Assembly (NCBI GenBank): GCA_944376845.1
Contig: CALWDZ010000003.1
Coordinates: 59,758-123,757, forward strand
Origin: an uncultured Clostridia bacterium
GTDB taxonomy: Bacteria > Bacillota > Clostridia > Christensenellales > UBA1242
Length of the DNA: 64,000 bases
Reading direction: 5' to 3'
Made by a program: the position numbers and the translations under genes. Position 1 is the first letter of the stretch. Each line of letters starts with the position of its first letter. The notes under the pieces were generated by a model that did not search any database, was not told the DNA's origin, and was given only the letters and a program-made list of their open reading frames with translations. Positions 3,456-31,700 of the stretch are shown here, in pieces.

Positions 3456-4229
3456 ATGGCACAAAAGTCGGCTAAGAAAATAATATATAATATTTTAATG
3501 ATATTATGTGGACTTGTTGGTCTATGGCTTTTTCTAAGCCATATGTTACATTTTTCTTTTCCAGATTATTTTTACACAAATTACCCTAGTTTAGATTTTT
3601 ACTATGGCACAAATGTTGTTTCTATGTGGGCTGACTTGTCTTTTTTTACATATCACACCTTAATTTTCTTTTCACTTTGGTGCATTTTGTATGCAATTTC
3701 AAATTTATTTAATTTCAAAAAACTAAACACATTTTTAATAAACCCTTATGTAATGAGTTTTGTTTTTACAAATTATGTTGTAACTGTCGTTTTATATACA
3801 TTATTTGAGTTGACATCTGGGAATATTACATTTGGCTTATATGCAAATGTGCCACCAGCATATCATAATTTAGGCACAAATATAATTAGCCATTATGTTT
3901 ATTTTATTTTTGCACTTATATTATTTTTAAAAGTAAAATCATATAAAACAAAAAATAGGGGCTTAGGTTTGTTTCCAATTTGTTACTTGCTTTTATACTA
4001 TATAATAGTTAAACTCACAGGGAAATTTGCATATAACATAGAATGGTATCCTTACATTATTTTTGATGCAACATCTATTGGCAAAATTTTTGGTGTAACA
4101 AATTATGTGGCGTGTGTCTTTATTTTAATTTCATTTCTGTTATTTATTGGAGTTGTGTATATGCTTTTGTATAGAAGTTTTGTAAACTTTAAAATAAAGC
4201 AAATAGATACTACTAAAAACACCACTTGA
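3456..4229 (+). CDS. polytopic membrane protein, unknown function
   Basis: 257-aa ORF with about 7 hydrophobic segments. No recognisable motif. Confidence 0.5.
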   Translation: MAQKSAKKIIYNILMILCGLVGLWLFLSHMLHFSFPDYFYTNYPSLDFYYGTNVVSMWADLSFFTYHTLIFFSLWCILYAISNLFNFKKLNTFLINPYVMSFVFTNYVVTVVLYTLFELTSGNITFGLYANVPPAYHNLGTNIISHYVYFIFALILFLKVKSYKTKNRGLGLFPICYLLLYYIIVKLTGKFAYNIEWYPYIIFDATSIGKIFGVTNYVACVFILISFLLFIGVVYMLLYRSFVNFKIKQIDTTKNTT

Positions 4230-4237
4230 ATTTATAT

Positions 4238-4545
4238 TTCATTCTGAACCTTTTTTGTCTGAGCCTTATCTTCTGCTATTCTGACATTATCTTCCGTCAT
4301 TCTGAGCGTAAGCGAAGAATCTCAACTTTACGTCACCCTGACCACTGCTCGCTTTGACGGAGAGGAAGGGTCTCTAAGAGGATGAGACTCTTCGTCAGCC
4401 GTCAGGGAAGCCACACTCAGAGTGACTAGAAAAATGTCATTCTGAACCCTTATGTCATTCTAAACAATCTTTTGTCATTCTGAGCGAAGCGAAGAATCTC
4501 AAAGATGTCTTACTTCGCTCGACATGACAAGAGAGAGTGACATAA
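4238..4545 (+). repeat. cluster of GC-rich short repeats (S modules GTCATTCTGAG..GAAGAATCTC at 4296-4323 and 4474-4500, degenerate copies, and a 95-nt L module at 4332-4426)
   Basis: Repeated GTCATTCTGA[GA]C words. The L module GTCACCCTGACC...CAGAGTGAC recurs at 30.9 and 31.6 kb. GC content is clearly above the flanks. Confidence 0.85.
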
Positions 4546-4548
4546 AAA

Positions 4549-4585
4549 ATGGTACATCTAATTTAATATTAGATGTACCATTTTT
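4549..4585. terminator. bidirectional intrinsic terminator (also the left inverted repeat of the candidate inverton)
   Basis: Perfect 12-bp stem ATGGTACATCTA/TAGATGTACCAT with an A-run upstream and a T-run downstream. Confidence 0.75.
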
Positions 4586-4706
4586 GTACATTTTTTGTAT
4601 ATATTTTGTCTAATCACTAAGATAATATCACTTTTTGAACTATTTTCAAAATAAATTTAATAATTTTTTTTAGAAGAAGTACACCTAATATTAAATTAGA
4701 TGGTCC
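4551..4706. promoter_or_regulatory. candidate invertible promoter element (inverton) upstream of the LRR surface-protein gene
   Basis: 29-nt inverted repeats at 4551-4579 and 4678-4706 match at 25/29 when inverted and 22/29 when direct, and flank 98 bp. On the minus strand TTGAAA (4649-4644), a 16-nt spacer and TGaTATTAT (4630-4622) form a promoter that currently points away from the gene. Confidence 0.45.
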
Positions 4707-4732
4707 GGGGAAATGGGAAAAGGAGAAAAAGT

Positions 4733-6424
4733 ATGAATAGAAAGTCTAAGTTATTCTTAAGTTTAGTATCGTTATGTTTTAGTATAGCAGTACTATGTTT
4801 TGGAGTATATAGTGCACTAAGTGTAAGTTACTCCATAAGTGGTAGTGTAAGTTATGAAATAAACGATGTGTTTGTAGAGTTAAACTTAAGTGTGTATAGA
4901 GAATTATCTACAACACCAGTTAATAGTGCAACACATAATCAAAACATAAGCACAATAAAGGATGCAGGAGATACCATCTCCGAAACAGACTTTGGCAAAC
5001 TTTCATACACCGATCATGAATCCACATACGAGGATGGAGAAGTTAAACCGGGCAATGAAGATGGAATATTTGAAGCAGATTCACCAAATTTAGCCTTAAC
5101 ATACGGCTCACCAACAAACGACAATCAAGGTTATGCATTTTATATAGTAATAGATATACATAACCTAGGCAGTGAGATAATAAACGCACAAATAACAGCA
5201 CCAACATCACTAGAGAACACCATTTTACGTGACTCAGGCAATGTAGAAATAACAGCAGACGGCACAGAGAGAATAGTATTAGGTTTAGCCCTAGACGATG
5301 TAACAAAAGGTATAACAAGTGCTGACTTTACCTATACAATAACAATCACGCGTGGTGAATTGCCTATAGAACCGATAATAGATATGGATTTTGGTATTGA
5401 TGAAATTACAAAAACCGCTACGCTTGCATCTTACACCGGATCGGGTGGTGATGTAATTATACCTAATTCGATAGGCTATAATTCACTTTCTTCAAAGACT
5501 TTAATATTTAACTCAATGGAAGATATGCTATCAGGAGCGAGAGGGATATATTTTTTTCAAGATTTATATATAACACTTCCAAATCAGAAAGCACAACTTA
5601 TTGAAAATCCAGTATTATGGTATATTGATAATTTAGGAAATATCCAATCATCACCACAAAATTATTTTTCAATGACAATACAAACTGTAGAAAGTTATAC
5701 AATTGACCAAGTAGATTATGCTGAATTTAATCAAAAAATGGCACATATGGCCACGACGCTTGCTTTTGGACCTATCCAAATGATAATGCAGAACATGTCT
5801 TTAACTTCAGTAGATGTACAATATGGCACAGAAGACCAATCTTTTACTTTTAATATGGAAAACTATAATGCTTATATGGATGGTGATGATAGCCCAATAA
5901 GTACAGTAATAGATGATTTTATGTCAAAAATGGAATCTGATCCAGAATCGTTATTGCCAGTAACTTATAGTAATTTTGAATATATTGTAGTTGTTAAAGA
6001 TGGTGAATATTCTGTAACAAGTATAGGAGAGAGTGCTTTCTCTAGTTTTAGTTCACTCACTAGTATAGAGATACCAAGCAGTGTAACAAGTATAGGCTCT
6101 AGTGCCTTCAATAATTGCTCTGCTTTAGAAACAATAACCTTTGGAGCGAACTCGCAACTAGAGAGTATAGGAGGGTCTGCCTTCTCTGGTTGTTCCAACT
6201 TAACCAGCATCACAATCCCAAGCAATGTGACAAGTATAGGCGATGAGGCCTTCGAAAGTTGTTCACTAGAAACATTAACATTTGAAGATGCCGATAGTAT
6301 ATGGGTGCTTAATGATAATACCGAGATTATAATAAGTGACCATACTGCTCAAGAACTTGCAGATTTTATAACAGACAACTACACTTACATGTATTCTACC
6401 TGGACAAAAAAGCAATCAGCATAG
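4733..6424 (+). CDS. surface protein with N-terminal signal anchor, TasA-like N-domain and C-terminal BspA-type leucine-rich repeats
   Basis: RBS AAAGGAGAAAAAGT precedes the ATG at 4733. Hydrophobic N-terminus ends in FGVYSA. C-terminal repeats SIGESAFSSFSSLTSIEIPSSVTSIGSSAFNNCSALETITF are typical of the BspA/LRR_5 type. Confidence 0.75.
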   Translation: MNRKSKLFLSLVSLCFSIAVLCFGVYSALSVSYSISGSVSYEINDVFVELNLSVYRELSTTPVNSATHNQNISTIKDAGDTISETDFGKLSYTDHESTYEDGEVKPGNEDGIFEADSPNLALTYGSPTNDNQGYAFYIVIDIHNLGSEIINAQITAPTSLENTILRDSGNVEITADGTERIVLGLALDDVTKGITSADFTYTITITRGELPIEPIIDMDFGIDEITKTATLASYTGSGGDVIIPNSIGYNSLSSKTLIFNSMEDMLSGARGIYFFQDLYITLPNQKAQLIENPVLWYIDNLGNIQSSPQNYFSMTIQTVESYTIDQVDYAEFNQKMAHMATTLAFGPIQMIMQNMSLTSVDVQYGTEDQSFTFNMENYNAYMDGDDSPISTVIDDFMSKMESDPESLLPVTYSNFEYIVVVKDGEYSVTSIGESAFSSFSSLTSIEIPSSVTSIGSSAFNNCSALETITFGANSQLESIGGSAFSGCSNLTSITIPSNVTSIGDEAFESCSLETLTFEDADSIWVLNDNTEIIISDHTAQELADFITDNYTYMYSTWTKKQSA

Positions 6425-30795: not shown

Positions 30796-31066
30796 GTCAC
30801 CCTGACCGCTCTCAGACCACTTGTCATTCTGAGGAGCGAAGCGACGTGAGAATCTCATCATCTTGTCATTCTGAGCCCAACTTCAACGCGTCGACCTGCG
30901 AAGAATCTCTATCATATGTCACCCTGACCACTGGCCCGCTTTGATGGAGAGGAAGGGTCTCAACTATAAGAGATCCTTCGTCAGCCGTCAAGGAAGCCAC
31001 ACTCAGAGTGACTAAAAAAATTGTCATTCTGAGCCTCGACCCGCAGAGACGGAGACGAAGAATCTC
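30796..31066 (+). repeat. repeat block left of GIY-YIG (S and L modules; contains the left ~177-bp direct repeat at 30821-30997)
   Basis: Near-identical to 31491-31666. Confidence 0.9.
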
Positions 31067-31086: not shown

Positions 31087-31401
31087 ATGAATTTGTGTAA
31101 TAATCTTACTATGTATTATGTTTACATTTTATCCAATAAAAACAATACGGTTTTATACATTGGAGTTACAAATAATTTGGTAAGAAGAGTTTATGAACAT
31201 AAACAAAAATTTGTTCAAGGTTTTACAAAAACTTATAATGTAGACAAACTTGTTTATTATGAAATTTTGTATGATCCATATAATGCAATTACAAGAGAAA
31301 AACAATTGAAAGGATTGAAAAGAAAGAAAAAAGATATGCTAATAAATAATTTTAATCCGGATTGGCACGATTTATATCAAGATATTTGTAATAGCGTATG
31401 A
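31087..31401 (+). CDS. GIY-YIG nuclease family protein (small UPF0213/COG2827-type)
   Basis: YYVYILSNKNNTVLYIGVTNNLVRRVYEH...AITREKQLKGLKRKKK is the GIY-YIG core. The start may be the ATG at 31111. Confidence 0.85.
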   Translation: MNLCNNLTMYYVYILSNKNNTVLYIGVTNNLVRRVYEHKQKFVQGFTKTYNVDKLVYYEILYDPYNAITREKQLKGLKRKKKDMLINNFNPDWHDLYQDICNSV

Positions 31402-31700
31402 GATCCTTCGTCAGCCGTCAAGGAAGCAGTTCTCAGGATGACACACACAGTCTTCTGAGCATATTTTTCTGTCATTCTGAGCGTACTTTTTTGTCATTCT
31501 GAGGAGCGAAGCGACGTGAGAATCTCATCATCTAGTCATTCTGAGCCACACTCCAACGCGTCGACCTACGAAGAATCTCTATCATATGTCACCCTGACCG
31601 CTCCCCGCTTTGACGGAGAGGAAGGGTCTCAACTATAAGAGATCCTTCGTCAGCCGTCAAGGAAGCAGTTCTCAGGATGACACACACAGTCATTCTGAGT
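31399..31700 (+). repeat. repeat block right of GIY-YIG (contains the right ~177-bp direct repeat at 31491-31666 and a 60-nt segment duplicated at 31401 and 31640)
   Basis: Direct sequence comparison. The GIY-YIG stop codon is the first triplet of the block. Confidence 0.9.

Follow-up and report, generated by a model that had tools for sequence, protein, structure and literature searches.

We conclude, from sequence comparisons, that positions 4551-4706 of a 64-kb stretch of DNA from an uncultured Clostridia bacterium (contig CALWDZ010000003.1, positions 59,758 to 123,757; the whole stretch of 64,000 nucleotides is referred to here as the window) are highly likely to constitute a functional recombinase-driven promoter inverton that is currently OFF and controls the gene for a BspA-type leucine-rich repeat (LRR) protein. 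The switch appears to combine a fimS-like design, in which the promoter lies inside the invertible segment, and a second layer in the form of a terminator that depends on orientation, as in cwpV. It is very probably a well-supported new example of a known mechanism and not a new mechanism.

A preliminary description of this DNA reported two 29-nt repeats at 4551-4579 and 4678-4706 flanking 98 bp, and the sequence was exactly as claimed. The whole element measures 156 bp. The two repeats do flank the segment as described, but each of them turned out to be a complete loxP-like core site in its own right, with two inverted 12-bp binding arms around a short asymmetric 5-nt spacer. The left site (IR-L, for left inverted repeat; 4551-4579) reads GGTACATCTAAT-TTAAT-ATTAGATGTACC, with an outer arm at 4551-4562, the core TTAAT at 4563-4567 and an inner arm at 4568-4579, and is a perfect 12-bp palindrome around the 5-nt core. 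The right site (IR-R; 4678-4706) reads AGTACACCTAAT-ATTAA-ATTAGATGGTCC, with its inner arm at 4678-4689, the core ATTAA at 4690-4694 and its outer arm at 4695-4706. Because of its odd length such a core is never palindromic. A repeat search agreed with the earlier claim that the two copies match better as inverted than as direct repeats: the 24 nt of inverted arms were 96% complementary and the direct match reached only 83%, a difference whose sole source is that the 5-nt core is reverse-complemented in the right copy. IR-L and IR-R were the top short-range inverted repeat of the window, and the site pattern GGTACAYCTAAT-N5-ATTAGRTGTACC was found at these two places only in 64 kb (0.00 expected in shuffles), with CTAAT-N5-ATTAG occurring twice as compared to 0.10 expected. 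The element therefore has the layout of an inverton, with short inverted repeats flanking a segment in the ~100-500-bp range directly upstream of a gene.

The segment between the sites carries a candidate promoter on the minus strand, consisting of a -35 element TTGAAA at 4644-4649, 16 nt upstream of the -10, and an extended -10 TGaTATTAT at 4622-4630 (-10 hexamer 4627-4622). This sigma-70/sigmaA-type consensus (TTGAAA-16-TATTAT with an upstream TG) scored 10/12 in a promoter scan, and both the -35 and the extended -10 (GTGATATT) were invariant in 12 aligned loci, bearing out the strong extended -10 promoter noted earlier. A plus-strand TTGAAC-18-AATAAT was considered as a functional promoter and rejected; it scored 9/12 and its -35 was lost in L024 and L047, two of the related loci described below. 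In the window the minus-strand promoter faces away from the gene and toward a bidirectional terminator-like hairpin at 4545-4585 (A-tract, IR-L and T-tract, with an 18-pair stem and T run; both strands), which was the sole terminator-like site in a scan of 4100-4900. The left repeat had been described as a 12-bp hairpin with U-tracts on both strands, and the extended left stem accordingly gave folding energies of -22.6 kcal/mol (z -6.9) and -22.7 kcal/mol (z -7.3) for the two strands, each followed by a U-tract. IR-R as now arranged folded at -5.4 kcal/mol, no better than shuffled sequence. The A-tract before IR-L was present in all related loci, and the T-tract rides on the invertible segment, so that the strong terminator is predicted only in the OFF arrangement. 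On the gene side, the ribosome binding site (RBS; AGGAG) and the ATG occupy 4721-4735 on the plus strand, with a spacing that is alike in relatives. IR-R and the ATG at 4733 are separated by 26 nt containing just the RBS, too short a distance for the gene to have a promoter of its own there.

Related loci were gathered from the contigs of homologues of the LRR protein, from a site-pattern scan using one genome per species and from the members of the window's Mur-ligase cluster. The same cassette, made up of IR-L, a segment of ~100 bp, IR-R and an LRR gene, was found at 17 loci of related metagenome contigs and metagenome-assembled genomes (MAGs), the window included. The LRR genes of these cassettes start M(N/K)R(K/R)SKL.FSL.SLCFSIAVLCFGVYSAL. 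The promoter pointed away from the gene (OFF) at 13 of the 17 loci (the window, L001, L002, L005, L007, L016, L019, L021, L037, L041, L045, L047 and L051) and toward the gene (ON) at the other four (L003, L004, L024 and L074). Both orientations of the segment were thus found between fixed flanks, the contrast being one between assemblies. The closest and most telling comparison was L074, the orthologous locus in a relative, which had the gene order of the window (RNase J ... Mur ligase, 257-aa gene, switch, LRR) and a left flank 96.7% identical to the window over 4357 nt, with the switch ON. At the enolase locus L004 was ON and L021 was OFF, with flanks 91% identical, and at the SMC-FtsY locus L003 was ON and both L002 and L037 were OFF. 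L024 (ON) and L047 (OFF) are paralogues in one MAG, E30__bin7.

Alignment of these loci placed the exchange inside the sites. The outer arms were fixed in all aligned loci (left GGTACATCTAAT, the CATC type; gene side ATTAGATGGTCC or ATTAGATGTACC) while the inner arms, ...TACC by the ATTTTTGT T-tract and ...TACT by TCTTCT, swapped sides with the segment. In the ON loci L004, L024, L074 and L003 the stretch equal to 4568-4689 was reverse-complemented between unchanged outer arms. As the outer arms stay fixed and the inner arms travel, strand exchange occurs in or next to the core, and the fixed outer arms and flanks exclude insertion of the whole element in either direction. The proposal that the repeats act as inversion sites is therefore upheld, and the DNA predicted to invert is 4568-4689, comprising both inner arms and the 98-bp segment (122 bp), with exchange within or adjoining the cores at 4563-4567 and 4690-4694. 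A flip had also been proposed to aim the promoter through the weaker right repeat at the RBS and ATG. The flipped relatives do have the promoter aimed in this direction, but the right site is then not the weak repeat now present; it is a new hybrid made of the reverse complement of the left inner arm and the right outer arm, with a predicted hairpin of -12 kcal/mol and no U-tract. Together the two hybrid sites formed by a flip folded at -13.4 and -12.1 kcal/mol, without U-tracts.

Further evidence came from more distant site pairs, which the site-pattern scan detected in other Clostridia, Bacilli, 'Christensenella' and Coprobacillus MAGs. These pairs had the same arms (GT[A/T]C[A/G]YCTAAT ... 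ATTAGRTG[T/A]AC) around unrelated inner segments of 92-157 bp. Across 31 site pairs (27 distinct) the cores within a pair were exact reverse complements in 31/31, with ~10 core types represented (TTAAT, TTATT, TTTAT, TAAAT, GATAT, ATGCT, AGTAT, ACTTT, ATGAT and ATTAT). All of the 135 cells compared (100%) were Watson-Crick, 48 cells were changed on both sides and 0/500 shuffles were as good, as compared to 24-59% pairing in slid-register controls. The core position adjoining the inner arm was T in 27/27 distinct pairs, and each site therefore has four variable core positions and a fixed polarity. Freely variable but matching spacers between conserved inverted arms are the overlap-region signature of Cre-, FLP- and Xer-type sites. 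In Cre/loxP, FLP/FRT and Xer/dif the spacers of partner sites must match, and the relative orientation of the sites decides between inversion and deletion. The sites described here share with these systems the two inverted binding arms and the short asymmetric spacer, and the within-pair core covariation fits the matching rule. They differ in that Cre, FLP and Xer have overlaps of 6-8 bp, whereas the symmetric arms here leave a 5-nt centre (four variable positions and the fixed T), with exchange mapped only between distinguishing arm positions.

In the mechanism that we propose, a recombinase, most likely of the tyrosine type and encoded elsewhere, would exchange strands in the cores and flip the 122 bp between them, switching the gene within a population. 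In the OFF arrangement, as in the window, transcription from the promoter would run leftwards and end at the IR-L hairpin and T-tract after ~75 nt, and the same bidirectional terminator would also block read-through from upstream. The LRR gene would be silent in this state because only the RBS lies between IR-R and the ATG. In the ON arrangement the promoter would face the gene, the T-tract would be gone from IR-L, the hybrid sites would form weaker hairpins without U-tracts and a ~90-nt leader would lead into the gene for the BspA-type LRR surface protein. Copies of the cassette stand before paralogous LRR genes at several positions of the chromosome, which gives every gene a switch of its own, and these private switches combined would be expected to generate combinatorial surface variation.

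To identify the likely enzyme we looked for recombinase genes near the sites. As noted earlier, no recombinase is encoded in the window; 0/48 open reading frames (ORFs) of at least 120 aa had a recombinase domain (Pfam), and tblastn with six members of the recombinase family described here found none encoded in the 64 kb. Recombinase genes do adjoin the sites in the wider family. At ten distant-family MAG loci (L006, L008, L009, L012, L018, L036, L038, L043, L044 and L048) the 3' end of a 300-330-aa (~309-aa) ORF abuts one site. The two of those ORFs that were scanned (L036 and L018) contained Phage_integrase (PF00589) and Phage_int_SAM_3 (PF14659) domains, and the catalytic R-K-H-R-H-Y was invariant in an alignment of eight of these recombinases. 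A profile search with the ~309-aa family (A2) returned >7800 proteins at E <1e-30, and the closest solved structure to the family profile was the Tn1549 integrase (E 5e-26); the L036 and L018 recombinases were below every curated NCBIfam cut-off. Distant-family switches were also located beside large secreted proteins with Big_2, Listeria-Bacteroides repeat or transglutaminase domains, and near-consensus promoters could be seen by eye in several distant inner segments (e.g. L014, L020, L026, L036 and L044). At L038 (1042-2034) the recombinase ORF reads through the adjoining site, and inversion would alter its C-terminal tail. Since no recombinase was found in the window or near the close-family loci, we infer a trans-acting orthologue elsewhere in the genome, in parallel to RecV of C. 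difficile and Mpi of Bacteroides (PMC5903667), and the enzyme is probably an A2-type tyrosine recombinase acting in trans.

Several points weigh against this interpretation. The enzyme assignment derives from the more distant site pairs, and no recombinase was found within the 3.4-12.6 kb examined per close-family locus. All of the ON/OFF contrasts are between assemblies of different samples or between paralogues, and none is a read-level contrast within one population. The L074 LRR allele is only 86% identical to that of the window, indicating that L074 is a different strain. A scaffold gap of 22 N that begins within the left site of L003 would fit mixed orientations but is no more than suggestive, since assemblies are also broken at paralogous repeats. 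The inner-left arm reads CATC in the window and CACC in other loci. Lastly, promoter and terminator activity are predicted from consensus, conservation and folding energy only.

We weighed four other explanations of the element. Under control of the cwpV type, a promoter upstream of IR-L would drive the gene, the switch would only make or break the IR-L terminator and the internal motif would be incidental or secondary. The cwpV switch works in this way (PMC5914908), and such control would account for a strong terminator that exists solely in the OFF arrangement with its T-tract on the segment. We nevertheless regard it as unlikely, as the invariant -35 and extended -10 lie inside the segment and always point toward the gene in ON loci, whereas upstream of IR-L short repeats form a variable mosaic that has no conserved promoter and differs between loci sharing the switch, and a scan of 4100-4550 found no promoter-like site upstream of IR-L. 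The orientation-dependent terminator would be an extra layer, and both mechanisms can act together, as they would in the promoter inverton. There is also a very small probability that the loci are evolutionary relics of rare RecA-type recombination between short inverted repeats with no programmed, enzyme-driven switch. The differences observed are all between assemblies and no invertase was found near any close-family locus, as would be expected of relics, but the 17 closely related loci show at least four flips, of which three lie at orthologous positions and one has a 96.7% identical flank. The arms and cores are also perfectly maintained, the same arms adjoin tyrosine recombinase genes elsewhere, and the strict core covariation with its constant polarity T (27/27 distinct pairs) fits the overlap region of a recombinase and not a need of RecA.

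It is just as improbable that the element has no inversion function in this genome, the palindromes being an intrinsic terminator and an operator or duplicate hairpin and the window copy being locked. IR-L would be adequate as a terminator for upstream transcription, and the IR-R outer arm (GGTCC) and the IR-L inner arm (CATC) of the window depart from the commonest forms among the aligned loci. The GGTCC outer arm, however, is common to loci in both states (L004 ON; L002, L037 and L041 OFF), and the window cores are perfectly matched. One further candidate is a miniature inverted-repeat transposable element (MITE) that ends in 29-nt inverted repeats and has landed in front of LRR genes in either orientation. 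It would explain a multicopy unit (at least five copies in one MAG) with terminal inverted repeats in a region where intergenic mobile repeats are abundant nearby. This explanation is extremely unlikely. The whole unit does not move; the outer arms and the distinguishing bases (GATGGTCC at the gene side) stay put and only the DNA between the cores is inverted. The copies are not independent of the gene, as the unit is always fused 26-34 nt from the start of a paralogous gene with a co-duplicated 5' end, and no target-site duplication was visible around the 156-bp unit.

The leader downstream of the promoter contained a further conserved feature. An 18-mer at 4596-4613 on the minus strand (TTAGACAAAATATATACA on the promoter strand), which would be transcribed as part of the leader, was identical in 12/12 aligned loci and was more conserved than the neighbouring genes. 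The OFF switch is predicted to yield a terminated RNA of ~75 nt (window 4540-4615, minus strand) that contains this 18-mer. An Rfam search of 4150-4800 returned sub-threshold noise only, and therefore no known riboswitch or small RNA at 4150-4800. A more speculative joint reading, to which we give a rather low probability, is that one trans-acting tyrosine recombinase runs genome-wide private switches of a BspA-like adhesin family, that the four variable core bases serve as self-only 'addresses' and that every OFF switch in addition emits the conserved terminated ~75-nt RNA (leader and IR-L hairpin), which might cross-regulate the family. If the core 'addresses' were true, the chromosome would be protected from inter-switch rearrangement, and the cores would be a natural counterpart of orthogonal lox variants.

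Comparison with known systems suggested the mpl (P35) family of Mycoplasma penetrans as the nearest functional analogue. According to PMC2268961, which cites Horino 2003, most of 38 dispersed surface-protein genes of this family each have their own invertible promoter. The likeness lies in a multigene surface-protein family at several loci with independent ON/OFF control by inversion of an adjacent promoter, and in candidate tyrosine recombinases that, in the same account, are not beside every switch. The mpl genes encode Mollicutes lipoproteins as opposed to BspA-type LRR proteins of Clostridia, and the site sequence differs. The sites of the present family are loxP-like palindromes of 29 nt, each with a core that varies by locus, and would double as orientation-dependent terminators. 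Inverton group 139 with invertase group 35 of human gut Clostridia may belong to the same wider family. These invertons are read-verified, with 32/33 in Clostridia, and almost every one adjoins a tyrosine-type recombinase gene that lies beyond the control of the switch (PMC11892184). The distant-family loci have a matching architecture, whereas the window subfamily is without an adjacent recombinase.

The preliminary description had named the Clostridioides difficile cwpV and flgB switches and the Bacteroides capsule invertons as examples of the same layout. The former proved to be poor analogues, as neither cwpV nor flgB has a promoter within its switch (PMC5914908). An intrinsic terminator arises when cwpV is OFF (PMC5914908, PMC5903667), and only the orientation-dependent terminator of the window element resembles cwpV. 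The element would also be like the RecV switches in that a Firmicute trans-acting tyrosine recombinase serves several dispersed switches upstream of surface genes (PMC5903667). No relationship exists between the inverted repeats of cwpV and flgB (PMC5903667), in contrast to the single conserved arm sequence common to all switches here. The Bacteroides capsule promoters were closer analogues, alongside the fimS and mpl promoters, and in Bacteroides many dispersed promoter switches are served by one globally acting recombinase (PMC5903667, PMC2268961). Like Escherichia coli fimS and the Bacteroides fragilis capsule switches, the window element is a short invertible segment carrying the promoter of a surface structure. 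Mpi, however, is a serine recombinase whose inverted repeats and promoter consensus are unrelated to the window sites, and the fim inverted repeats measure 9 bp as compared to the 29-nt sites here. Unlike fimS and the Mpi switches, the present family has cores that vary from locus to locus, and its predicted enzyme is a small tyrosine recombinase. An Mpi-type assignment does not fit GGTACAYCTAAT-N5-ATTAGRTGTACC sites, a sigma-70/sigmaA-type promoter and associated tyrosine recombinases.

Among gut and oral bacteria, LRR proteins of the BspA type occur widely and are candidate adhesins; to our knowledge almost nothing is known of their regulation. We found no literature linking invertons with BspA-type proteins. 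In this uncultured animal-gut Clostridia lineage a whole family of such proteins appears to be phase-variable gene by gene. The conserved arms, the covarying core and the fixed polarity base make up a simple signature that finds switches and ~309-aa tyrosine recombinases without reads, and the element can serve as a clean positive control for inverton calling from sequence alone. The per-locus cores offer a testable idea of how many identical switches could coexist in one chromosome.

The controlled gene (4733-6424, plus strand) encodes a protein of 563 aa that has a BspA-type LRR_5 domain (E 9e-29) and, at its N terminus, a hydrophobic anchor or signal, in agreement with the LRR protein placed at this ATG earlier. 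Full-length homologues were 58-81% identical and had the same switch upstream. Exact look-ups of the window LRR protein (both start codons) and of P0007 matched no record. The window protein is shorter than its relatives (563 aa as compared to 642-1070 aa), mostly through the number of LRR units. Assemblies often break inside LRR genes; the contig of L001 stops at window 5088, and the 354-aa fragment P0009, encoded on a 3.5-kb contig, covers 63% of the window protein at 100% identity. For L050, an LRR homologue, no site was found in the 216 nt available upstream.

MAGs carried several switches of this family each, often with different cores. Five switches of E30__bin7 (L007, L016, L019, L024 and L047) had the cores TTTAT (three times), TTATT and TAAAT, with 1/5 ON, and the three switches of E21__bin298 (L021, L037 and L041) had three different cores, TTAAT, TTATT and TTTAT. 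Solo sites of the form GGACCATCTAAT-TCTTT-ATTAGATGTAC with no partner were present in E30__bin7 at L017 (~2043-2066) and L032 (~180-203), ~190 nt from the start of a gene beginning MKRKFKLFATVASLC, and may be remnants of a resolved or locked switch. Matches to the site pattern in viral and JGI sequences served as negative controls. Viral contigs gave 19 pattern matches, all of them (19/19) single sites of one conserved phage sequence with no partner and no recombinase, and therefore no phage link. In the JGI metagenomes the 26-base close-family pattern gave 0 matches and the site pattern gave three single sites with no partner, and the one of these that was inspected (L071) lay in DNA that looked protein-coding; the window's lineage appears to be absent from this collection. 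Contigs binned as Parasutterella excrementihominis (L014, L029, L039, L042 and L046) carried distant-family sites, with three sites exactly 45 nt from a contig end, and are probably mis-binned Firmicutes or reflect an assembly-breaking repeat.

The window is low-GC (~32%) chromosomal DNA with housekeeping genes, including tRNA synthetases, RecO, Era and YqfD, and a 4.2-kb stretch of it was 95% identical to MAG GCA_944383255.1, 'uncultured Clostridia bacterium E30__bin7'. The cassette is a presence/absence polymorphism at a synteny break at window 4247. In L077, L078 and L079 (95-96% identical) the Mur ligase, the 257-aa gene and the S10 ribosomal operon are directly adjacent, with no switch or LRR gene, while after 4247 the window continues with the switch, the LRR gene, DegV and TetR, and an S10 operon is absent from all of its 64 kb. 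The corresponding break coordinates are around 5997-6355 in L077, L078 and L079 and 4640-5000 in L005, where the switch and LRR genes are present and the 257-aa gene is missing. Homology of L077, L078 and L079 to the window stops at 4247, inside a zone made up of short repeats of the GTCATTCTGA type. Recombination between switches was considered as the cause of this break and rejected, because homology ends in the GTCATTCTGA zone ~100-300 nt upstream of IR-L and not at the sites.

The short intergenic repeats form a family with members at window 4235-4540, 21926, 29082, 30800-31060 and 31400-31700, built from elements of the forms GTCATTCTGAG...hairpin...GAATCTC and GTCACCCTGACC...GACGGAGAGGAAGGGTCTC. 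The same repeats were found upstream of IR-L in all related loci read (L002-L005, L051 and L074), and homology between strains breaks inside them. A GIY-YIG ORF of 96 aa (31111-31401; Pfam E 9e-18) lies between two of the repeat blocks.

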